A stretch of DNA of 64,000 nucleotides from Candidatus Shapirobacteria bacterium (GTDB lineage: Bacteria; Patescibacteriota; Microgenomatia; UBA12405). The notes beneath the pieces are model-generated. The model was not told the origin of the DNA. It did not search any database and saw only the letters and a list, made by a program, of their open reading frames with translations. The stretch lies in contig DPKG01000014.1 of the NCBI GenBank assembly GCA_003542615.1, positions 8,521 through 72,520 on the forward strand. Direction: 5' to 3'. The translations under genes were made by a program, and so were the position numbers. Shown one piece after another: positions 5,357-63,255 of the stretch; position 1 is the first letter of the stretch; each line of letters opens with the position of its first letter.

Positions 5357-5971
5357 ATGAAAGTCTATTTTGTCCGCCATGGTTCCACCGATTCTTTGGA
5401 AAAGAAAATCAGTCAACCGAATGATGAGCCACTAAATCAAAAAGGTCTTAATCAAGCGAAAGGGCTGGCAGAAAGATTTGCAAAAACACAATTAGACTTG
5501 ATTGTTTCGAGTTCTCATCTTCGGGCAGTTCAAACAGCCAAAGCCATAAATGAGGAAATCCAGATTAGTGAATTATTCGTCGAAGTACGAAAACCTAGTG
5601 AGGTAATCGGTCGATCAAAAGAGGATGGAGAAATAAAAGTAATTCTTCAAAGGATAAGTGAAATGTACACCAAAAATCCTAATTGGCATTATTCGGATGA
5701 AGAGAATTTTGAAGATTTGAAAAAGCGGGGAATGCAGGCTTTGGAGTTTTTGAAATCACAGAACAAAGAAAATATTTTAGTAGTTTCTCATGGTCACTTT
5801 GTGGCCTTATTATTAGGGCTGATGTTATTTGGGAAAGAATTTCCGGTTGAGGCAGCTTTACTATTCAGAAATTTTTTTAGATTTGGCAATACCGGAGTGT
5901 CTATTTGTAAATATGAGGATAATAAATGGAAACTGCAGTGTTGGAATGACACATCACACTTACTGGAGTAA
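5357..5971 (+). CDS. histidine phosphatase superfamily protein (phosphoglycerate-mutase-like)
   Basis: N-terminal 'VYFVRHGST' (RHG catalytic motif); C-terminal 'VVSHGHF' second His motif. Confidence 0.7.
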   Translation: MKVYFVRHGSTDSLEKKISQPNDEPLNQKGLNQAKGLAERFAKTQLDLIVSSSHLRAVQTAKAINEEIQISELFVEVRKPSEVIGRSKEDGEIKVILQRISEMYTKNPNWHYSDEENFEDLKKRGMQALEFLKSQNKENILVVSHGHFVALLLGLMLFGKEFPVEAALLFRNFFRFGNTGVSICKYEDNKWKLQCWNDTSHLLE

Positions 5972-5975
5972 GGAT

Positions 5976-6497
5976 TCAAAAAAAATCTTTGGCATGTTTC
6001 GTTAATTGTTCAAAGTCGTCATAGTCATGAGTATTATTACCGGTATTTTTTATCAGATGATAATCAGCTGGGTTATTTTCTTTAAGGACCTTTACGAGAT
6101 CAGCAAAACTAAATAAAAAATCAAACTCATTTTGAATAAACATGGCGGGAATAGTCAATGACTTTAAATAATCATTGATGGGGAAGTTCATTTCTTTGGC
6201 TAAATTATATGGATGGCCGCAAATTATTATCTTTTTGGGACTAATTATTTTTTCATAAATACTTTTTAGAGCCAGAACTGAACCGATGGACTTGGCAAAG
6301 ACAAAATAATCTCTTTTGTCTTTAAGCAACTCTGTTAATTTTTCCGATTCTTTTTGAAGATTTATCCATTTGTCTCCGGTTTGCCAGTGATCGTAATACA
6401 GAATTTGACCGTCTGAAAATTTATCAAATTCTGCTTTAACTTCTTCAATCCAGATTTTATTATTTAGGCTATTACCGGCGAGATAAATGATGTGCAT
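5976..6497 (-). CDS. alpha/beta-hydrolase-like protein (YqiA/esterase-like), hypothetical
   Basis: 173 aa; 'IIYLAGNS' N-terminus and 'AKSIGS' near-nucleophile-elbow. Weak. Confidence 0.3.
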   Translation of the reverse strand: MHIIYLAGNSLNNKIWIEEVKAEFDKFSDGQILYYDHWQTGDKWINLQKESEKLTELLKDKRDYFVFAKSIGSVLALKSIYEKIISPKKIIICGHPYNLAKEMNFPINDYLKSLTIPAMFIQNEFDFLFSFADLVKVLKENNPADYHLIKNTGNNTHDYDDFEQLTKHAKDFF

Positions 6498-6633
6498 TTA
6501 TAGGGTAATTATATACTAGATTCGGTAAAGTATAGTTTGAGTAACAAACTTGTTTAATTTAGATCATCGTTTTAATACACTCCTTTAAACGGTGTTATAA
6601 AACCATCAAACTTCCACCTACAAGTTCAAGTTT

Positions 6634-6789
6634 TTAGTAGTCGGTACCGGTAAAAGGACATTCCCCATATTGATTGGATGGACCGGTAGAATTTTCACCC
6701 ACTAACTGATCCCCGCCTGCAAGTACGGACTGGGCAGAAAAAATAAAAACAACTGAAAATATGAACAAGGACAATATAATTTTTTTCAT
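6634..6789 (-). CDS. small secreted peptide precursor (51 aa), not in ORF track
   Basis: Manual translation gives MKKIILSLFIFSVVFIFSAQSVLA|GGDQLVGENSTGPSNQYGECPFTGTDY: a signal peptide followed by a 27-aa Gly/Thr-rich peptide. Sits in an otherwise unexplained 430-nt intergenic gap. Confidence 0.3.
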   Translation of the reverse strand: MKKIILSLFIFSVVFIFSAQSVLAGGDQLVGENSTGPSNQYGECPFTGTDY

Positions 6790-6927: not shown

Positions 6928-7557
6928 ATGGCTATAAGAAAAAAACTAATCAAAAGACTTAAAAGAATACAGGAGGAATTGAATATTCCCCATATTCCAA
7001 TTACGAGACTGGAAAATCTCAGTATTGAAACCAGAAAAGCCTTTGATGAATCAATCAAATACTTGATGGTTAAGCGCGGTTTGTTTAAAAAAGTTAAGGT
7101 AAGACGGGATTATTTGAAACTATGGCGTCACAGAGAGAATCAGATAGTTTTGCCGATTAACTGGCGATATATTTTGAGCATACCCTTTATTTATGGGATG
7201 ATTGTGCCGGCAATTGTGTGGAATTTAGGACTGGAAATTTATCATCAAATTTGTTTCCGGCTTTATGGAATTCCACTGGTTGATGCGGAAAAATACTTTA
7301 TTTATGACCGACAATTAATGTCATATTTAAACTGGTGGGAAAAAATAAATTGTTATTATTGTTCGTATGTAAACAACCTGATTAGTTACAGTTCTGAAAT
7401 TGGCGGAAGAACCGAGCGTTATTGGTGTCCGATTAAATATTTCAGACGGGTAAATAATGCCCATTCTCAATATCCGAAATTTATTGACGGGAAAAACAAA
7501 GATGAGATTTATGAAAAGTGGGGTTTGCTTCGTAATTTTTCTGATATTGATAAATAG
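6928..7557 (+). CDS. hypothetical membrane protein
   Basis: 209 aa, two predicted TM segments, Cys cluster 'CYYCSY...C'. No family recognised. Confidence 0.4.
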   Translation: MAIRKKLIKRLKRIQEELNIPHIPITRLENLSIETRKAFDESIKYLMVKRGLFKKVKVRRDYLKLWRHRENQIVLPINWRYILSIPFIYGMIVPAIVWNLGLEIYHQICFRLYGIPLVDAEKYFIYDRQLMSYLNWWEKINCYYCSYVNNLISYSSEIGGRTERYWCPIKYFRRVNNAHSQYPKFIDGKNKDEIYEKWGLLRNFSDIDK

Positions 7558-7591
7558 AGAGACGGTGACAGTGGATTAAAATATTGATAAG

Positions 7592-8155
7592 ATGATAGTA
7601 ATGAATGATGAGGAGAAAAAAGTAAATCCAACAGAAGAAATAACCGATGACGGGATGGAGGAAAAAGTATTAATGGTTTGGGAAGCGGCTGAGAGAGCGT
7701 TTAAGAGAAGGGATAGGGATTTTTGGATAACGGCTATTGCGATATTGGTATTAGTGGGAGTGATATTTTTTATGATTGGAGAATTTTTTCTGGTGATTGC
7801 ACTGGCATCGATTTTATTTTTGGCATATGTACTTTCGACGGTACCTCCGGAGAATGTGGTCTGTAAAATTACAAATAGGGGGATATATTTCGGAGATTCG
7901 CATTATGGTTGGGACTTGTTGGAAAGGTTTTGGTTTAAAAAATCTTTGGATAGTGACGCGGTATTTTTTGAGACTAGGTTGAGATTTCCCAGACAGGTAT
8001 CGATGATAATCGATAAGTCAAGTGAAGAGAAAATTAAAGAAATTGTTATAAAGAGAATTCCGATGATGGAAAGTTCACCTTCAACAGTTGATAAGCTGAC
8101 CAATTGGTTTGCCCAAAGATTGCCTTTGGAGGATAGAAAGGAAAAATCCGAATAA
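7592..8155 (+). CDS. hypothetical membrane protein
   Basis: 187 aa with a central double-TM hairpin. Confidence 0.4.
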   Translation: MIVMNDEEKKVNPTEEITDDGMEEKVLMVWEAAERAFKRRDRDFWITAIAILVLVGVIFFMIGEFFLVIALASILFLAYVLSTVPPENVVCKITNRGIYFGDSHYGWDLLERFWFKKSLDSDAVFFETRLRFPRQVSMIIDKSSEEKIKEIVIKRIPMMESSPSTVDKLTNWFAQRLPLEDRKEKSE

Positions 8156-54794: not shown

Positions 54795-55208
54795 TTATTT
54801 TAGAGTTTTAAACTCTTCATAATATTGAGCAACGATTTTTTTCCATTTGATAGTTTCGTTTGGCGGTCCGATGTTGTTTTTTGAATAAACTAAAAGAATT
54901 TTTACTATTTTATTGACAGTATCTACGGCGGCAATAATACGATTACCTGAAGATTTTGGGGAAGTATGAGTACCAGCCACCGCAAAATCTAGTTTAACTA
55001 TGATGTATTGCCCACAAGGACAAATAATGTCTAATTTTGAATCAGTCGGTTTATTGTTTGGGGCATAGTTGTCACATCTTTCAAATATTGACTTGACTGC
55101 AGAAATTGTAATATCCCACTGTTTACCTTTATATTTCTTAATAAAACCTTTTATATAATGCCTCTGTGCAAAATCCTCGATTAAAACGACATATCCATCA
55201 GTAGACAT
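54795..55208 (-). CDS. candidate toxin, RelE/ParE-like C-terminal region (137 aa)
   Basis: 'GNRIIAAVDTVNKIVKILLVYSK' resembles the RelE/ParE C-terminal beta-strands 'RIIYxVDxxxxxVxILRIxHRK'. 11-nt overlap with the upstream antitoxin-like gene. Confidence 0.4.
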   Translation of the reverse strand: MSTDGYVVLIEDFAQRHYIKGFIKKYKGKQWDITISAVKSIFERCDNYAPNNKPTDSKLDIICPCGQYIIVKLDFAVAGTHTSPKSSGNRIIAAVDTVNKIVKILLVYSKNNIGPPNETIKWKKIVAQYYEEFKTLK

Positions 55209-55878
55209 ATTCCGGATCTTGCTGAGTAATCAATTCGTAGGGAATTACCTCACCATCACGGCAAATTTTGTAGGGTAGTTGCTCGTGGGTAAATTTGACA
55301 ATCTCTTCAGTTCTCTTGCCCTGCCATTTTTGGGAAATGTTTTTGATTAATTTTTTTTCTTCAGTTTTTAATAGATTCGGTTTTAACATTTGCCCAGCCC
55401 GGGACAAACTAATCATTTGACTACCGTCTTTTTTAATTTCCAAATTGAGAACTCCTTCATTGATAAGCTCCTCTACCTTGGAAAAATATATGTTTGGGAC
55501 CGGACCTAGTTTTAGCCGGCGATATTTGGCACCGGTCATTGATTCAAGATGTTGGTAATACCAGGCAAAATCGTTTAAATAAATCAATTTAGCTAATTTT
55601 GTTTTGGTAATTTTACCGTCGGTAGCGGCACCATAACGGATAGTTTCCAGCAACACTTCACGGTATTTTTCCTCATCAACAATATCTTCGGATAAAATAT
55701 CTTGAGACTCGCAACCAAGCTTGTCGGCCAGCTTTTTAATCTGGTCAAGAGTAGGCGAACCAATCCCCTTCTCGAGAGCAATAAAAGTAGGTCGGGAAAC
55801 ACCGATTATTTTGGCCATATCTTCTTGAGTCCAATTGTTTTTCCGACGAATGCGGGAAAGAAAATCTTGATTAATCAT
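55198..55878 (-). CDS. XRE-family HTH fused to Panacea (DUF4065/SocA-like) domain; candidate PanA antitoxin
   Basis: N-terminal 'WTQEDMAKIIGVSRPTFIALEKG' HTH; C-terminal 'KTKLAKLIYLNDFAWYYQHLESMTGAKYRRLKLGPVP' matches the DUF4065 core (KLxKLLY...W...G..Y....GPV). Confidence 0.55.
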   Translation of the reverse strand: MINQDFLSRIRRKNNWTQEDMAKIIGVSRPTFIALEKGIGSPTLDQIKKLADKLGCESQDILSEDIVDEEKYREVLLETIRYGAATDGKITKTKLAKLIYLNDFAWYYQHLESMTGAKYRRLKLGPVPNIYFSKVEELINEGVLNLEIKKDGSQMISLSRAGQMLKPNLLKTEEKKLIKNISQKWQGKRTEEIVKFTHEQLPYKICRDGEVIPYELITQQDPEYVY

Positions 55879-55908: not shown

Positions 55909-56682
55909 GTGTCAATTGTATTGACATGGTGGTGTAAAAAAATTTTATTCATCCTCATATTTATATTGCCAGCCGGGTATGTTTTACATAAAACTAAATA
56001 CTTGATTGTTGATTATTTTAGTCCTATAATACATATGAAATTTAAACTTTATATGCTTAAAGAAGGATATTTTATTCCAAGGCATGATAAATATGGTCAA
56101 ACACTAAGATCTCGAGGTTTCGTCGGGGTAGAATCTTGGATAACTGCTAACTTGCAACGGCTAACGTTGGGTTCTAATGGGCCATTATTGCGGGATGAAC
56201 TGAATCGGTCAAACAGAGAGCTTAGAGACGTCTTGTCTTTTGGTGGAATTGTGACCTATGACGGAGATATCTTGGCTATTGGATTGGAAAATGTGGTTGA
56301 TGAGGAATTTATGTCGATTTTGCGTGAAAAAGGAGTAATAAAATGCACCGTTTTGAAAACCGAAAAATTACTTGGGGCTGACTTTAATGCTAATGTTCCA
56401 ATAAGACGTCAAACAAAAATAAACTTCTACGCTCCTCAATTGGATAGCCGCTTGTCATACTCAACAAGCAAGGGAAATTCATTCTTTTTTTGCCTTGATC
56501 GCGAAAAGTCTCTCCATCATGAATTTATCCCTTTTGAAAAACATATCGGTGGGGCGATATATGGAATTAAACTTCCGAAAGATATCTCAATCTCAACAGG
56601 TACCTTTTTAAGTCAAGTGCTTGCTGAGGCTTGTATGGAAAAAGGTTTTGGGTATGTACCACAGCATTGTGTCAAAAGATGA
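55909..56682 (+). CDS. hypothetical protein, divergent from the HTH gene (start possibly at 56035 'MKFKLYML')
   Basis: No family recognised. The first 40 aa of the track ORF are hydrophobic and may be a 5' extension. Confidence 0.35.
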   Translation: MSIVLTWWCKKILFILIFILPAGYVLHKTKYLIVDYFSPIIHMKFKLYMLKEGYFIPRHDKYGQTLRSRGFVGVESWITANLQRLTLGSNGPLLRDELNRSNRELRDVLSFGGIVTYDGDILAIGLENVVDEEFMSILREKGVIKCTVLKTEKLLGADFNANVPIRRQTKINFYAPQLDSRLSYSTSKGNSFFFCLDREKSLHHEFIPFEKHIGGAIYGIKLPKDISISTGTFLSQVLAEACMEKGFGYVPQHCVKR

Positions 56683-56697
56683 ATTCAAACTAATAAT

Positions 56698-57432
56698 TTA
56701 ATCGAACTTATGGCTGGCATGACGATAATTGCAAAATTCACAGTCGGGATTTGAATTGGGGATGGTTTCACTATTTAAACATTCGTGGGCCTTTAGGATA
56801 GTATCTTCAACCCAGGAATCATCACCAGTGTGCTCGACGATAGTCATTTTGAAATTTAGTTTGCCATCAAAGGCGGGTAGGTTTTTGTCGGCGTTGGCAA
56901 AAACAAAAAATCCCCTATTACTGACCTTAAACCCATTTTGCCTAAATAACCATTGATAAAAGTCCATTTGTCTTTTGTATCCTTGCTTATACTGATCCTC
57001 GAGTGATATTTCTTTTTGGGTACTAGTCGATTTGTAATCGACGATATAAAACTCCCCTGCCGGATTTATCCAAACATCATCGACAGCTCCAAAGACATGA
57101 AATTTAGTAGGTTCGTGGTCAACACTTATACCGGTAAAATTGGCTCTCCAGGTATCCATTCGATCGTCTTGATATGGTATGGCGTCAATACCGTATTGCT
57201 CCATCAACTCATGTGTCTGGCCGTTCTTGCGAAGTAAGTCGAATTCTTTTTTCAATAATTCGTCTACTGCTGAATTGAGGGTGTATCCGGGCATAGAAGG
57301 TCTCCCCACTCCTAGGCGTCGGTCCAAATAAAAACATTTGGGGCATTTGACAAAATCTTCAATTTTGCTGCGGCTGATTTGATAAAATTTCGATTCTTCT
57401 GGTTTGTACACTCCTTTATATGATGGGTGCAT
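56698..57432 (-). CDS. PD-(D/E)xK nuclease, Cas4/RecB-like, with Cys cluster
   Basis: 'VDDVWINPAGEFYIVDYKS' (D...E.K core), 'QMDFYQ' (QxxxY motif). N-terminal 'CPKC' and C-terminal 'C-x12-C-x2-C' as in Fe-S RecB-family nucleases. Confidence 0.55.
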   Translation of the reverse strand: MHPSYKGVYKPEESKFYQISRSKIEDFVKCPKCFYLDRRLGVGRPSMPGYTLNSAVDELLKKEFDLLRKNGQTHELMEQYGIDAIPYQDDRMDTWRANFTGISVDHEPTKFHVFGAVDDVWINPAGEFYIVDYKSTSTQKEISLEDQYKQGYKRQMDFYQWLFRQNGFKVSNRGFFVFANADKNLPAFDGKLNFKMTIVEHTGDDSWVEDTILKAHECLNSETIPNSNPDCEFCNYRHASHKFD

Positions 57433-57435
57433 GGG

Positions 57436-60141
57436 TTATTTTAAAATTTGTTTCTCAAACACTTCTTCAAATTTTTCACGCAATGCGCTGTTTACCTGTC
57501 CTTCGTTAAAGAAAGGCAAACCAATCAAACGAAAATCCTTATTTTCTATCTTCAAATCAACAGTGTGATTTTTTTCAATTTCAATCAATAGTTTCTGCTT
57601 CCATCCTTCTTTCGATTGCTCAAAAGTATTTTGCGCGTCTAAAAATTGATCGCCCTTTGGCTCAACAAAAATTTGGTACATAACTTCTTGCTTTGTCTTC
57701 TTCTCTGTCAAAAACAAAACGAAATCCGGATAAAACGGCTCGCCGTTTTCAAAGCAGTAAATTTTGAAAAATTGCTCGTTGCGAAGCAATGCAATGTTTT
57801 GATATTTTTTCTTTAACTTTATTATTGCCTCATCAATAAATCGCAAAAATGATTCTTCTTCACTCGTTCCCCAGATTTCGTTTTGAGCAAACCAGTCGCG
57901 AGTTCCAAAATCAAAATCCCTCATATTTTGCGCTCGCGGACTTTCGCTATCAAGTTGCAATACCTTGTCATTTTCAAATATTTTTTGGATCAAGTGTGCT
58001 TTGAATTCCTTTGTTCCATAATATTCCTTTTTCTCTTTGCCGGCGATTTCTAGCACTTTATCAATCACAAATTCGGCAATACTCAATTTTTCAATCTGCA
58101 AAAGATTTTCTACTTGCTCACTTGTGCCTTTCACCTTAATTTTTATTCTGCCAAGATATTTTTCGTTGGAAATAAAATCCTTTGCGGATTCTATATTGCC
58201 GAATATCTTTTTTAGCTCATAAAATCGACCGGCAGGTATTTTTGCCAAAGCGGTGCGGACAATATGCGTTCCCAAATCAGCAATTTTATAATCCATAGTT
58301 TCTATTTTTGCCTTTACTCCAGCGCCAGCCCCCGCCACAAACAAATCTTTTTCTATTGCTTCTCGTGTGGGTAGTTGAAAAATGTTTATTTCAGCATTGT
58401 GGTCAAATTCCGCTTTAGCGTCCGAGAGCGCAAAAACATCCTTACCCAAATTCTCCTTGCGAGAATTTAAGAAAATATAACCTTTCTTCCAAAAATCGCT
58501 GTTCTTAAAATTACTTTTGATCTTAATCTCTTTTTGCACTGTGCGTGACGGCATAATACCTTCACGAACCAAAACACTTTCCAATTCTTGGATATAACGG
58601 GGGTTCGTTACGCTGTGATAATAAAGCTGTTCCAAAATCCGTAGTTCGTTTTGTGTGTCGGTATCAAATTTTCGTCTATATGCGTCCGTAAAATCGCCGA
58701 GCGTAAATGGATAATATCTCGCGCCTCGTCCGATAAGCTGTGCCTCTTGTACTGTTGTTTTACCCGGCGTGTTGCTTTTGGCATCACGGCTATTATAGAG
58801 CCGGACAATATCAAAAAGATTCAAAACATCCCAACCCTCATTCAATTTTTCTGTCGCAAAAATAGCGCGAATTTCATTGCTTTGATCTTCCAAAGAATTA
58901 AGTAAAATTTGCTTTTGCTCTAAATCTTTATCTTCATCAACCGTCAAGCATTTTTCCGGCGCAAAATCACTTTTAATTTCTAACACTAAATCCGCCAAGG
59001 ATATTTTTTGCTCATTGAAAAATTGAAATGCTTTTTGCAATGTTGCGTCTTTAATGGCTGTTTGTTGTTTTAGATGTTTTTCGCCGAGTTCAGAAATAAG
59101 TTTATGAAAAGAATTTTTGAAAATGCTCGAAACGACAATTTGCGGATTATGTTCTTTTGATATTCCTTCTTTGGGGATACTTACTCTATTAGCTTTAAAC
59201 ATCACCACCGGCTTCAATGCGATTTTGTACTTTTCTGCCACTTTACGACGATATTGCGAAATAATCACCGCCGAAAGCGCGCGTTCCATAATCGGCGCGT
59301 TAATTTGCAAAGTTCGCACATCTTTTGAAAATCCGTCCAAGCGATATTCTTTCAGATCATAACGATAAATCGCTTTGTCTTTGTATTTTTCCAAAATTTC
59401 AGGATATTCCTGCTCGAGCCGAGCCGTTGCTGTAAATTCCAAAAGTATATTGTCTTTTTGACTGTTTGCGTTCAAAATTTGCACCACTGTATTTTCCCAG
59501 TTTCGGCGGTCTTCTTCTTCGGTTTTACTTATTTTATTATTTGTTTCCGCAGATAGATTGTGCGCTTCATCGGCAATCAAAACAATTTTTTTGTCCGCAA
59601 AATCTTCGTAAGTCAAAACATTTTCGCGAGCGAAATTAAAGCGAGAATGCAAAAGCGCGGTGGTAGAAAAAATAATGTTTATGTCAGCATTATTTACGCC
59701 TTCAAAATTATCTACTTCTTTAATTTTTATTTCCTGTCCGCCAAGCGTGATTTTGTCGGCAAACAAATACTTTTTGGAATTCGGATCAAGAAAATTGGCT
59801 TTGGTCTTTTGGATAATGTTGCCAAGGCGAGTAAAAAAAATGAAATTGCGGTAGCCTTTTTGATAAAAATACAAAAGATTGGCGGCCATGACGAGCGTCT
59901 TGCCCGAGCCGGTCGCCATATTAAACATCAAATGAATCGGCTTTTGTTTTTGGTGATATTCTTCAACATAATAATAAAATCGTCCCAGCGCTTCTTTCTG
60001 ATATTCGCGCGCTGGAAAAGCCGGATTAAGATTTTTCAAAATATCCGTTTTTTCTGTCGCCTTGTTTTTGAAAACATCAGCGCCAGCAAAGTTTTTATAT
60101 GAGTTAAATTCGTCGTAAAGCATTTTATTTAACAAAACCAA
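57436..60141 (-). CDS. res: Type III restriction enzyme Res subunit (SF2 helicase + C-terminal PD-ExK nuclease)
   Basis: 'MATGSGKT' Walker A, 'LIADEAHN' DEAH box, helicase C motifs, C-terminal 'YPDFVLF...IFVEPKG'. Confidence 0.8.
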   Translation of the reverse strand: MVLLNKMLYDEFNSYKNFAGADVFKNKATEKTDILKNLNPAFPAREYQKEALGRFYYYVEEYHQKQKPIHLMFNMATGSGKTLVMAANLLYFYQKGYRNFIFFTRLGNIIQKTKANFLDPNSKKYLFADKITLGGQEIKIKEVDNFEGVNNADINIIFSTTALLHSRFNFARENVLTYEDFADKKIVLIADEAHNLSAETNNKISKTEEEDRRNWENTVVQILNANSQKDNILLEFTATARLEQEYPEILEKYKDKAIYRYDLKEYRLDGFSKDVRTLQINAPIMERALSAVIISQYRRKVAEKYKIALKPVVMFKANRVSIPKEGISKEHNPQIVVSSIFKNSFHKLISELGEKHLKQQTAIKDATLQKAFQFFNEQKISLADLVLEIKSDFAPEKCLTVDEDKDLEQKQILLNSLEDQSNEIRAIFATEKLNEGWDVLNLFDIVRLYNSRDAKSNTPGKTTVQEAQLIGRGARYYPFTLGDFTDAYRRKFDTDTQNELRILEQLYYHSVTNPRYIQELESVLVREGIMPSRTVQKEIKIKSNFKNSDFWKKGYIFLNSRKENLGKDVFALSDAKAEFDHNAEINIFQLPTREAIEKDLFVAGAGAGVKAKIETMDYKIADLGTHIVRTALAKIPAGRFYELKKIFGNIESAKDFISNEKYLGRIKIKVKGTSEQVENLLQIEKLSIAEFVIDKVLEIAGKEKKEYYGTKEFKAHLIQKIFENDKVLQLDSESPRAQNMRDFDFGTRDWFAQNEIWGTSEEESFLRFIDEAIIKLKKKYQNIALLRNEQFFKIYCFENGEPFYPDFVLFLTEKKTKQEVMYQIFVEPKGDQFLDAQNTFEQSKEGWKQKLLIEIEKNHTVDLKIENKDFRLIGLPFFNEGQVNSALREKFEEVFEKQILK

Positions 60142-60853
60142 TAAACCTTAAAAGTTTTTCTCCTTTGTCTGTAATAGAAAAAGCTCCGCCGGTAACCCCA
60201 TTGATCATTCCATTTTGCTGTAAAACGTTGAATACTGTCGCTCTCTGACCTGGATCTATAATAAATGACTGCCACGCAATATTATATGAGTCGTAGGTAA
60301 TAATACTTTTATCTTTTAAATCAAAAAACCATTTTAGAACCCGCTTCGTTGTGTCCACAAAAAATAAAGCGAGGTAACTAAATTCATATATCTCTAAAAG
60401 TGCTTGCTGGGCCATTAGTTGTTCTTCAGTTTGGGCTTTTTCTTGTTTGTTCTTATCCAGTAGTTTTTTGAGCTCATCTACTTTCGCCATTTGCTCTGGA
60501 TTATCAACTGGGAGTTCTTTATTTTTCCCATCAATTTTTACGTTTTCAACTTTGGGCTCTTGCTGTCTTTCATCTGTACCAGGAACTTTTGGTTTATGGT
60601 TTTCCAAAAATATTTCTATTGAGTTATGAAATTTTCTCATAAAAACAAAAAAACCTAAAACTCCTAACGTTGGCCAAGAAAGTAAAATCTGTAGTAAATC
60701 CGTTGTCTGTTTTGCACTGTTTTCATTGTATTTGGGAACGATAAAAATAATTAATGCAACCAATCCAATTACAATAAAAAAAAACAAAACTATGCCTAGC
60801 AAATAAGGCAATTCTTGTTTCCCCCATTCATATATTTTTTTAAAATTACCCAT
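60125..60853 (-). CDS. hypothetical membrane + coiled-coil protein inserted between mod and res
   Basis: 242 aa; two N-terminal TM helices, Lys/Glu/Gln-rich coiled coil, C-terminal globular part. Overlaps the mod stop and the res start. Confidence 0.4.
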   Translation of the reverse strand: MGNFKKIYEWGKQELPYLLGIVLFFFIVIGLVALIIFIVPKYNENSAKQTTDLLQILLSWPTLGVLGFFVFMRKFHNSIEIFLENHKPKVPGTDERQQEPKVENVKIDGKNKELPVDNPEQMAKVDELKKLLDKNKQEKAQTEEQLMAQQALLEIYEFSYLALFFVDTTKRVLKWFFDLKDKSIITYDSYNIAWQSFIIDPGQRATVFNVLQQNGMINGVTGGAFSITDKGEKLLRFIGFVK

Positions 60854-62723
60854 AAAATTCTTTGTTTAATTTAATATCTTCCTTACTTACACCATACTCC
60901 TTATCCTCAATCTCGCTCAAATTGACATAAAGCTGGTTTTTATCCAAACACTCAACTAAAAATCTCTTTTGATCAGCAACACTCAAGTCGGCAAAACCTT
61001 TTGCGTTCGCGTCAACCGATTTGGGATCTACTTTATAGCTCAAAAAGGCTGTTTCTTCCATTTCGTTCCAAAGTTTGGAAAGTTCTTTTCCGGTTTTTGC
61101 TTTTTCAATTTTTTCTATCCATTCCTCGTTCCATTTAGCAAGTTCCATATACACAAAATCACCGCCACCTTGCCAATTTACAGCTTTTGAAATTCCACCC
61201 TGTTCACCAGCGATAACTTTTTTGAGTCGTGCTTCTGGTAAATCGTGAATATAATCCATTTGCTCAACACCAATATATTGTCGCCCCATTTTATGTGCCA
61301 CCGCCAAAGTCGTTCCGCTCCCAGCAAAAAAATCTAAAACGAGATCATCCTTTTTACTTCCAATTTCTAAAATTCTATGTAAAAGTTTTTCCGGTTTTGG
61401 TGTAGAGAAATCAGCATTATCGAATAATTCTTTTATTTCTTTTCTAGCATCTTGATTGTGTCCAACATCTTCATAAGACCAAATTGTTTGCGGGGTTACG
61501 CCATCTCTAACTTCAGATAAAAATCTTTTAAGCGATGGCACGCTTTCTCCGTTGGCTCCAAACCAAATTCGATTATCCTCCACAAGCTCATCAAACTTTT
61601 GCTTAGACATTCTCCAGCATCTACTTTTTGGCGGATTCACAATGCGTCCACTTGGCGTAGTAATTGGATAATCGTAACTTACAGAATAAGTTTTGACAGA
61701 TAAATCACTGGATTTCCAAACCCCTCTTGGATCATTGTCAGTATTTTCATATCTTGCATTCATTTCATCAGTTCTTTGAAGTAAGTTAATCTTCCAATCG
61801 TTTTTATTTTTAGCAAAAACTAAAATATGATCATGCATATCTGAAAAATATCTCGCATCATTCTGTGGGGAGTATTTTTTCTGCCAAATAATATTTGCCA
61901 CAAAATTATCCCTTCCAAAAATACCATCTGAAATAACTTTTAAATAATGGGATTCATCATCGTCAATATTGATCCAAATAGATCCCTCTTCGCTCAATAA
62001 TGTTTTCGCGATATCCAAACGATTTTTTATAAAAGTTAACCAAGAAGAATGATTAAAACTATCGTTATAACCAAAAGAATCTTTTCCAGTATTATACGGT
62101 GGATCAATATAAATTAATTTTACTTTTCCGGCGAATTCTTTTTTGAGCGATGCGAGCGCGAGCAGGTTATTGCCTTTGATAATCAAATTATCTTTAATCG
62201 TGCCTTTTACATCTCTGTTGAAGCCGTCCAGTTTGTGTTCGCCTTTTTTGTCTATCCGCTTAAAATTGGTAAAAACTTTGGCGTCTAGCAAGCGATTGAT
62301 GTCGTCCGGCGCCAATGTTTCGTTATAAAAAATCTCGTTTCTTTTTTGGTCCTCTTTGGTCATTCCACCTTCCAAAATACAATCTTTGTATGGCCATGCC
62401 AAAACCACTTCTTTGTTTTCGCCCACATATTCATCACTAGTAGTTAAACCGATTTTATTTTTGAAAGCTGTATAAGAATCCGGTAAAAATTGTTTATTGG
62501 AAACAAAACGGATAAATTTCTCTTTATCAAAAATCAGCGTCTTTTCTACTTCAAAAAAGAAGTGTTGCTTTGTCGCTTTGTCGGAAAGCAAAAGTATGAT
62601 AAGTTCAGGATCATTTTTTCGAGCTAATTCCTGTGTTTGGTTTTTCAAAAGTACGCCATCTTGCGAAGCAAGGCGCTCATCTTTTTTTAATAAATCTGTC
62701 AGTTGTTCAAAGATATTTTTCAT
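60846..62723 (-). CDS. mod: Type III R-M Mod subunit (N6-adenine DNA methyltransferase, beta class)
   Basis: Motif IV 'LIYIDPPYNTG' precedes motif I 'DFFAGSGTTLAVA' (beta-class order); 625 aa. Confidence 0.85.
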   Translation of the reverse strand: MKNIFEQLTDLLKKDERLASQDGVLLKNQTQELARKNDPELIILLLSDKATKQHFFFEVEKTLIFDKEKFIRFVSNKQFLPDSYTAFKNKIGLTTSDEYVGENKEVVLAWPYKDCILEGGMTKEDQKRNEIFYNETLAPDDINRLLDAKVFTNFKRIDKKGEHKLDGFNRDVKGTIKDNLIIKGNNLLALASLKKEFAGKVKLIYIDPPYNTGKDSFGYNDSFNHSSWLTFIKNRLDIAKTLLSEEGSIWINIDDDESHYLKVISDGIFGRDNFVANIIWQKKYSPQNDARYFSDMHDHILVFAKNKNDWKINLLQRTDEMNARYENTDNDPRGVWKSSDLSVKTYSVSYDYPITTPSGRIVNPPKSRCWRMSKQKFDELVEDNRIWFGANGESVPSLKRFLSEVRDGVTPQTIWSYEDVGHNQDARKEIKELFDNADFSTPKPEKLLHRILEIGSKKDDLVLDFFAGSGTTLAVAHKMGRQYIGVEQMDYIHDLPEARLKKVIAGEQGGISKAVNWQGGGDFVYMELAKWNEEWIEKIEKAKTGKELSKLWNEMEETAFLSYKVDPKSVDANAKGFADLSVADQKRFLVECLDKNQLYVNLSEIEDKEYGVSKEDIKLNKEFYG

Positions 62724-63012: not shown

Positions 63013-63255
63013 TTAGGCTTTGATTAGGGCTAGTTTTTGGAGACGGGAGAGTTTTTTGATTTGAGATTCGGCAATAAGGGCGGAGGAGCGGTCGGGAAAG
63101 GAGGCGGAATAGACTAATTTGACCGGACGGCGGGCGCGGGTGTATTTTGCCCCTATTTTGGGGGAATTATGTTCTTTAAGACGGCGGGGCAGATTGGTGG
63201 TGATGCCGGTATAGAGAGTGTTGTCGGCACAGAGAAGGATGTAGAGGAAGTACAT
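63013..63255 (-). CDS. GIY-YIG nuclease domain protein (UPF0213-like)
   Basis: 'YFLYILLCADNTLYTGITTNLPRRLKEH' carries GIY...YIG plus the conserved Arg/Glu. Confidence 0.7.
   Translation of the reverse strand: MYFLYILLCADNTLYTGITTNLPRRLKEHNSPKIGAKYTRARRPVKLVYSASFPDRSSALIAESQIKKLSRLQKLALIKA

Follow-up and report, generated by a model that had tools for sequence, protein, structure and literature searches.

Restriction-modification (R-M) enzymes of Type III are Mod2Res complexes whose ATP-dependent cleavage involves two inversely oriented unmethylated sites and whose methylation is confined to one strand (hemi-methylation). The systems are usually treated as strictly two-gene, a view from which a conserved and coupled third gene departs. 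In the canonical examples (EcoP1I, EcoP15I and the Haemophilus HI_1054-56 type), mod lies 5' of res, Mod combines a TypeIII_RM_meth N-terminal domain with DPPY and FxGxG motifs and a variable centre, and Res combines superfamily 2 (SF2) ATPase motifs with a C-terminal PD...ExK nuclease. Here we describe a locus in a 64,000-nucleotide (nt) stretch of contig DPKG01000014.1 from a Candidatus Shapirobacteria bacterium (the whole stretch is called the window below) that shares these features with the canonical systems and differs from them by a coupled gene for a protein of 242 amino acids (aa), here called X, between mod and res. What is new is this conserved embedded gene, which comes from a family without a curated model; Type III R-M itself is known.

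Extra genes tied to other R-M systems offer points of comparison. C proteins are ~80-100 aa long and have an Xre-type helix-turn-helix (HTH), with C-box operators 5' of their own gene. RptR shows a strong association with Type I systems (PMC12255303). Like X, both are proteins with a DNA-binding fold that are genetically tied to R-M, but they are small and soluble with operators in an upstream promoter, whereas X is ~240 aa long, has two predicted transmembrane (TM) helices and a putative coiled coil, and has no upstream intergenic region. PrrC is embedded in the Type IC EcoprrI locus, and PrrC and RloC in Type I hsd loci are, like X, encoded by an extra non-R-M gene that directly precedes the R gene and is expressed together with it (PMC12707154). 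PrrC is an ABC-ATPase joined to an anticodon nuclease, whereas X has no ATPase or nuclease family match; the position alone is analogous. The literature open to search gave no account of Type III operons with a conserved third gene, although this does not prove that none exists, and nothing directly relevant on membrane or winged-helix R-M accessories.

The ORF list gives four co-oriented open reading frames (ORFs) tightly packed on the minus strand within 56698-62723 of the window (Table 1), and all gaps among them are of 3 nt or less. The mod stop and the X start overlap by 8 nt (ATGGGTAA, read from the sequence), the X stop TAA is 1 nt away from the res ATG, and 3 nt separate the res stop TAA from the ATG of a nuclease gene. 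Thus mod and res lie on one strand with mod first, no promoter-sized gap and the 729-nt X in between. By these junctions X is shown to be translationally coupled to mod, as far as gene overlaps predict it, and to abut res, and from the overlaps we infer a single mod-X-res operon. The order mod-X-res-nuclease, the close packing of stops and starts and a Res with its own C-terminal PD-ExK had all been put forward from the sequence alone in an earlier note (the original prediction), and all three were borne out. Scans for promoters and terminators gave fewer matches than in shuffled sequence and were uninformative.

Mod matches PF12564 (TypeIII_RM_meth, 2.4e-23), PF01555 (N6_N4 methyltransferase (MTase), 5.1e-52) and the PADLOC model MTase_III (2.9e-184), and its DPPY at residue 207 precedes FAGSG at 466, the beta-class order. 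Res matches PF04851 (ResIII, 8.8e-24) and the PADLOC REase_III model PDLC03651 (6.9e-110, residues 45-900 of the protein on positions 39-866 of the 873 of the profile), with GSGKT at 78, DEAH at 191 and PD805...E827-P-K829; orthologous Res proteins have the precomputed Pfam domains HI_1054_N and HI_1054. An alternative TTG start at 60141, six codons 5' of the in-frame ATG at 60123, would give a Res of 901 aa; the orthologue alignment with the Res of locus L003 starts at the ATG, that is, with the 895-aa form. Mod and Res thus have the sequence features of Type III R-M and are predicted to form a complete, canonical cassette. Since nothing catalytic is missing from either, X would be an add-on and not a replacement part. 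Mod is annotated and its neighbours are labelled 'hypothetical' in the Candidatus Shapirobacteria metagenome-assembled genomes (MAGs) GW2011_GWE2_38_30 and RIFOXYD1_FULL_38_32 (exact-sequence match).

The modules of the cassette have different closest relatives. The N-terminal 218 aa of Mod are 92% identical to the Mod of L003 (L003 1835-3775) and its central region is ~39% identical, which looks like a typical swap of the target-recognition domain. Res is 90% identical to the Res of L005 (L005 3289-5976), where X is 57% and Mod 70% identical to the window proteins; in L001, X is 78% and Res 65% identical. The cassettes appear mosaic, which indicates recombination between modules. Unlike canonical systems, the window mod has no phase-variable simple repeat that we could find.

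X is a genuine gene, as the original prediction had proposed. Its 10 close homologues are 46-100% identical, and those in the same position between mod and res are 46-78% identical. Across three orthologous cassettes, the ratio of nonsynonymous to synonymous substitution rates (dN/dS) is 0.09-0.23 for X, against 0.21-0.23 for mod and 0.07-0.19 for res, values that are rough because dS is near saturation; X thus appears to be under purifying selection, like mod and res. The GC content at third codon positions (GC3) is low in X (0.27), in line with mod (0.31). The homologues, the dN/dS values and the kept position rule out a spurious overlapping frame, the finding by which the original prediction itself would have had X discarded.

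The family to which X belongs is large. When 1.84 billion representatives were searched exhaustively with a profile, 482 clusters matched at E<=1e-3, of which 206 also did so at <=1e-10; almost all are of 190-260 aa and match end to end. Querying the word index a second time, with the profile of the family, yielded almost nothing more. Neither the window protein nor 81 family members reached the threshold of any Pfam, NCBIfam or PADLOC model. Below threshold, winged-helix models recur: HTH_45 in 10 of the 81 members (E<0.01) and a CARF-associated HTH in six, with the window X at 16.5 bits against HTH_45 (threshold 25.5). We conclude that X is, by these profile searches, a member of an undescribed, large and uncharacterised protein family, unseen by annotation and defence-finding pipelines because no curated model exists for it. 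X is absent elsewhere in all recovered loci, and no X was found in phages, plasmids or viral contigs (tblastn of phage and plasmid collections and four IMG/VR pattern scans). In two loci the X-family frame is broken and split over two ORFs (L015 7998-8604 in a Zambryskibacteria MAG, and L020 846-1339 in a metagenome contig), which may point to pseudogenes or to errors of assembly. A 121-aa form consisting of the C-terminal part only is the cluster representative P0133.

The order mod-X-res is kept in every recovered Type III locus with an X homologue (6/6: the window, L001, L003, L005, the P0009 contig and L019). In L003 the cassette is preceded by HEPN_AbiU2 and followed by a PDDEXK nuclease, in L005 it is preceded by MazE, and the P0009 contig shows a cut gene, X and res, so that the res side alone is visible. 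L019 encodes an N6_N4 MTase, X and Res; its X is ~30% identical to the window X and its Res belongs to another clade (RE_endonuc; PADLOC PDLC03647, 5e-286). L001 carries mod, a ClpP-family gene, X, res and an HTH_24 gene. The ClpP-family gene (L001 2096-2644, plus strand; also L002 54-602) encodes a 182-aa protease that is ClpP-like at 5.9e-26 yet falls under the NCBIfam ClpP cut-offs, and its place before X hints at proteolytic control of X.

The wider family is found beside other nucleases. As in the PrrC and RloC loci, an X relative lies beside a Type I gene in L022, directly 3' of the specificity gene hsdS (PADLOC, 1.1e-64). In L015 the broken X frame follows a Type II MTase (1.2e-82) and an HNH protein, and in L021 X precedes a gene with a weak Mrr_cat match. 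In L023 and L024, X follows a small HIRAN protein that matches the PADLOC candidate-defence model PDC-M03B, and in L016 and L017 it precedes a Bro-N protein between ribonucleotide reductase genes. A scan of metagenome contigs for the X sub-group contributed three loci and a genome scan one locus. Altogether, 9 of ~12 informative contexts are R-M contexts, and in eight of these nine X abuts the nuclease gene. The X family thus tracks restriction and other DNA-acting genes.

An AlphaFold model of X built from an 81-sequence alignment has a mean predicted local distance difference test score (pLDDT) of 89; it supersedes an earlier AF2 model from 10 sequences (pLDDT 61), for which Foldseek matches to winged helix-turn-helix (wHTH) folds reached only E>0.1. 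The chain begins with helices 2-41 and 44-74, which contain the two hydrophobic segments listed in Table 1 and are broken at S59-W60-P61, and continues with an amphipathic helix (76-85). Among the 81 members, S59 is conserved in 83%, W60 in 92%, P61 in 95% and F75 in 93%, and a hydropathy scan found two TM segments in 56 members and one in 23. A variable charged linker follows (residues 86-118, pLDDT 64-70), which differs in length or is absent in the L003 and L005 orthologues, and then a long single helix (pLDDT 91-98) that probably dimerises as a coiled coil. The C-terminal domain is modelled as a compact H-H-H-hairpin-H fold (pLDDT 95-98) with the topology H1-(beta)-H2-H3-beta hairpin wing, and superimposes on known wHTH structures of the MarR/TubR type. 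TubR and MarR winged-helix proteins share 10-17% sequence identity with X and are soluble, whereas in X the domain is fused to a predicted anchor and a long helix. Close homologues differ hardly at all in the winged helix; across the family the signature reads FxYLxxFxVxxTKxxLxWF...QRxxI...L...GxxFL. The charge distribution of X fits an N-in/C-in topology, which would place the C-terminal domain in the cytoplasm. X had been described beforehand as a membrane/coiled-coil protein, a description that agrees with the two hydrophobic helices and the long central helix and to which the predicted winged helix is now added.

The gene that follows res encodes a nuclease described at first as Cas4/RecB-like with five cysteines. 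The cysteines are conserved (C30xxC33, C218, C231xxC234) and the protein matches PF12705 (54.2 bits, cut-off 22; 2.6e-14); the part of the description that did not hold is Cas4, for which it stays under the cut-offs (PF01930, 16.6 against 22.7 bits; TIGR00372, 32.7 against 65). Cas4 proteins have the cysteine pattern C...CxxCx5C. Like the Cas4 and AddB Fe-S nucleases, which the weak Cas4-model matches recall, the window nuclease has a PD-(D/E)xK core, QxxxY and cysteines at both ends of the domain, and unlike Cas4 it has the pattern CxxC...C...CxxC. D119, D132-Y-K134 and Q155xxxY159 are invariant in 17 homologues. No relative of solved structure was detectable by sequence, and no cas genes lie next to the nuclease in the window or in ~14 homologous contexts. 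The family is very large, with at least 7978 matches at E<=1e-10 (7978 of the 8000 scored candidates), of 55-89% identity and mostly from Patescibacteria.

Four contexts of this nuclease (L006; L008-10; L011/12; L013/14) were picked without regard to gene content, and nine more are IMG/VR contigs. Of 14 independent contexts, 12 have distinct defence cargo as the direct upstream neighbour of the nuclease. The cargo is a Type I hsdR with a 104-aa gene in L006 (nuclease 89% identical), a different Type III res in L008-10, a Type I hsdR in L011/12, an Eco57I/TaqI_C MTase with a TrlF-family ATPase in L025/26 and another Type III pair in L027. It is HsdR with a Gabija-like OLD-TOPRIM/UvrD pair in L028, two MTases with NOV_C and DUF3644 in L029, HsdR with a CBASS-like pair of SMODS/AGS_C and SLATT_4 in L030, HerA in L031 and an EcoRI methylase with GmrSD-HNH in L032. 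L033 has an unrelated divergent gene, and L013/14 has no cargo, only CTP synthase and then ~1 kb of non-coding sequence before the nuclease. The cargo thus spans R-M systems (Type I, IIG-like and Type III of three kinds) as well as non-R-M defences, is always co-oriented with the nuclease and ends ~1-25 nt before its start; Trypsin_2 and FtsK recur downstream. No tRNA or other integration landmark was found in five of the loci. Core defence hotspots of Pseudomonas aeruginosa (cDHS) and E. coli likewise have a conserved marker gene beside a variable defence slot; as described (PMC10250203, PMC10121019), they lie within one species, whereas the slot at this nuclease is found across divergent Patescibacteria lineages (nuclease identity 42-89%). 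We found no report of such a hotspot in Patescibacteria in the literature searched. On the simplest reading of these gene contexts, the nuclease would be no part of the Type III system but a conserved Patescibacteria gene that bounds a defence-island hotspot on its 3' side.

Two further observations come from these loci. The 'empty' site of L013, from CTP synthase to the nuclease (7026-8000), is ~1 kb long with no convincing ORF and no tRNA, and might contain a non-coding RNA or what is left of a decayed cargo. In L006, an unannotated 257-aa gene between hsdS and hsdR (5895-6668, plus strand) is itself a candidate embedded accessory; it was considered as an X relative and rejected (hhalign probability 0.1%).

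We consider it reasonably probable that the locus is a Type III cassette with X as an embedded add-on, followed by a nuclease gene that is a separate hotspot marker. The Type III and X cassette would have been acquired horizontally and would be the current cargo of the hotspot in this genome. X would sit in the cytoplasmic membrane as a dimer, its winged helices would bind DNA at the inner membrane face, and it would couple or confine restriction to the membrane, the site of foreign DNA entry; alternatively, it might modulate restriction activity in another manner. DNA binding, dimerisation, membrane localisation and an effect on restriction are what we infer for X, and a dimeric, membrane-tethered DNA-binding accessory that confines restriction is the likeliest single mechanism, though at less than even odds even if the rest of this account is right. 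The nucleases that partner X have unrelated structures and the modules freely recombine, which makes a dedicated protein interface between X and Res seem unlikely; the mosaicism of the cassettes speaks against tight co-adaptation of such an interface and in favour of a generic role of X centred on DNA or the membrane.

Several observations weigh against this account. The C-terminal domain of X is only mildly basic (median pI 8.1), and the relative P0010 has a TrmB-type wHTH instead of the membrane anchor, which would be redundant if DNA were bound by the C-terminal domain. The link between X and restriction activity is drawn from gene context, and the contexts sampled are few, ~12 independent loci (five of one clade) for a family of 482 clusters. 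Two of the ~12 informative contexts are not R-M and one locus (L018) is uninterpretable, the neighbours of X being unidentifiable, while the reading frame is broken in L015 and L020. As for the nuclease, the window and its closest relative L006 share this gene only, with both flanks different; because of this, what supports its status as a core gene is the size of its family, its conservation and the downstream neighbours that recur.

The chief rival takes X for an autonomous embedded guard like PrrC, a latent membrane-acting abortive-infection effector whose winged helix would sense phage DNA, restriction products or an anti-restriction protein and whose two-TM module would then damage the membrane when restriction fails. 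X is placed as prrC is, inside an R-M operon before the R gene (PMC12707154), and its overlapping stops and starts would ensure constitutive co-expression with the R-M genes. The membrane module has a conserved motif of its own (S59-W60-P61 and F75) that goes beyond a generic anchor, the contexts beside HIRAN (PDC-M03B) and Bro-N are those of a self-contained module, and two-TM effectors are common in defence systems, as with the SLATT_4 effector in the L030 cargo. X, however, has no similarity to PADLOC effectors, SLATT or other two-TM effector families; about a quarter of the family members score only one TM segment and P0010 has none; its constant placement in the Type III loci exceeds what a hitch-hiker needs; and searches of the viral, phage and plasmid sets, in which mobile defences of a single gene are frequent, did not find it. 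We regard an autonomous guard as unlikely, though as the strongest of the competing explanations. A transcription controller in the manner of C proteins, timing or limiting res expression after entry into a new host, is less probable again, to the point of being doubtful. C genes also lie directly 5' of the REase gene and are co-transcribed with it (PMC12707154). The winged helix of X is MarR/TubR-like, and one family member bears the JGI label 'predicted transcriptional regulator'. Type III systems are said, in a point attributed to Redaschi and Bickle 1996, to need delayed restriction on establishment. Yet X matches neither the PADLOC Control_protein models nor Xre-type HTH families (HTH_3), is three times the size of a C protein and is apparently membrane-anchored, when a soluble operator-binding controller needs no anchor. 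The X start lies inside mod, neither X nor res is preceded by an intergenic region or a promoter-like site, and 5' of mod no conserved operator-like element was found in the window, L001 or L005, while L003 has no intergenic region there. The winged helix also stays nearly invariant across cassettes with different partners, unlike that of regulators that track operators.

The remaining rival is the one that the original prediction had favoured, in which mod, X, res and the nuclease form one modified four-component Type III system. The co-orientation and close spacing of all four genes are in its favour, as is the L003 cassette, which also ends with a member of the nuclease family (52% identical). 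Defence genes abut the nuclease far above chance, and a general tie to DNA-cleaving defences, for example in end processing, is conceivable. Nevertheless, mod-X-res is kept without the nuclease after res in L001, L005 and the P0009 contig, so that only 2 of the 5 window-clade loci with a known downstream side have it; what is conserved among relatives is the three-gene part of the proposed arrangement. The size and identity range of the nuclease family, its occurrence after many unrelated cargos or after no defence gene, and its GC3 (0.41, against 0.27 for X and 0.31 for mod) speak the same way, as does L006, in which a nuclease 89% identical to that of the window stands beside a wholly different cassette. 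A four-gene system is very improbable, and the nuclease would belong to a neighbouring unit, an outcome that the original prediction had itself named as contrary to its claim.

The genes on either side of the locus (Table 1) had been taken as signs of a defence island. Both the GIY-YIG gene (PF01541, 3.6e-19) and the HTH plus Panacea antitoxin gene (PF01381, 2.1e-12; PF13274, 1.6e-10) are present, and the island context holds in spirit, with the nuclease gene and not the GIY-YIG gene as its anchor. The GIY-YIG gene has a GC content of 0.50 and a GC3 of 0.58, against a GC of 0.38 for the window; the representative of its 90%-identity cluster is a protein of a WWE3 bacterium, another lineage of the Candidate Phyla Radiation (CPR). 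These features suggest that the gene was recently transferred horizontally or belongs to a mobile element. In L014 a 41%-identical gene is found two genes upstream of the nuclease. The gene is an upstream flank, not part of the system, and is not evidence of a defence function. The 137-aa partner of the antitoxin has no match in Pfam, PADLOC or NCBIfam, and the pair is probably of the PanA type with an undescribed toxin. A further putative ORF, between the nuclease and this pair, likewise has no match in Pfam, PADLOC or NCBIfam.

Table 1. Positions of the genes, the predicted segments of X and the flanking features in the window
Feature	Position	Strand	Description
GIY-YIG gene	63013..63255	-	80 aa, stand-alone; no PADLOC match
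mod	62723..60846	-	625 aa; predicted Type III N6-adenine DNA methyltransferase/specificity subunit
X	60853..60125	-	242 aa; predicted membrane-anchored coiled-coil winged-helix protein, between mod and res
X, predicted first transmembrane helix	60737..60793	-	residues 21-39; Kyte-Doolittle 19-residue mean 3.57; within model helix 2-41
X, second hydrophobic helix	60641..60697	-	residues 53-71; Kyte-Doolittle mean 1.88; carries S59-W60-P61
X, long single helix	60362..60499	-	residues 119-164; putative coiled coil
X, predicted winged-helix domain	60134..60361	-	residues 165-240; most conserved part of the family
res	57436..60123	-	895 aa from ATG; predicted SF2 helicase-like ATPase and C-terminal PD-(D/E)xK
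RecB/Cas4-like nuclease	57432..56698	-	244 aa; PD-(D/E)xK, five conserved Cys
Putative ORF	55909-56682	+	257 aa; GTG start; convergent with the nuclease gene
Putative toxin-antitoxin (TA) pair	54795..55878	-	HTH_3 and SocA/Panacea antitoxin (226 aa) and 137-aa gene; 11-nt overlap

In a bolder version, to which we give some weight while leaning against it, X would represent an unrecognised, widespread class of restriction-associated membrane proteins, and the nuclease a hotspot marker throughout the phylum Patescibacteria. X would then be a dimeric winged-helix factor, anchored in the membrane and cooperating with all types of restriction nuclease; it would capture incoming DNA at the membrane for restriction, or serve as a guard in the manner of PrrC, setting off an abortive response at the membrane once restriction is blocked. 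If true, some systems of Type III (and Type I, II and IV) would gain in X a third functional component, and the nuclease gene could serve as bait for mining new defence systems from CPR genomes.

The selection on X, its coupling to mod and its ties to other restriction nucleases suggest an unstudied layer of control or of spatial organisation of restriction or, alternatively, a new embedded back-up defence. The nuclease gene would flag the edge of a slot for defence cargo in many Patescibacteria, and may thus offer a handle on defence in a huge, mostly uncultivated lineage that is largely without CRISPR.

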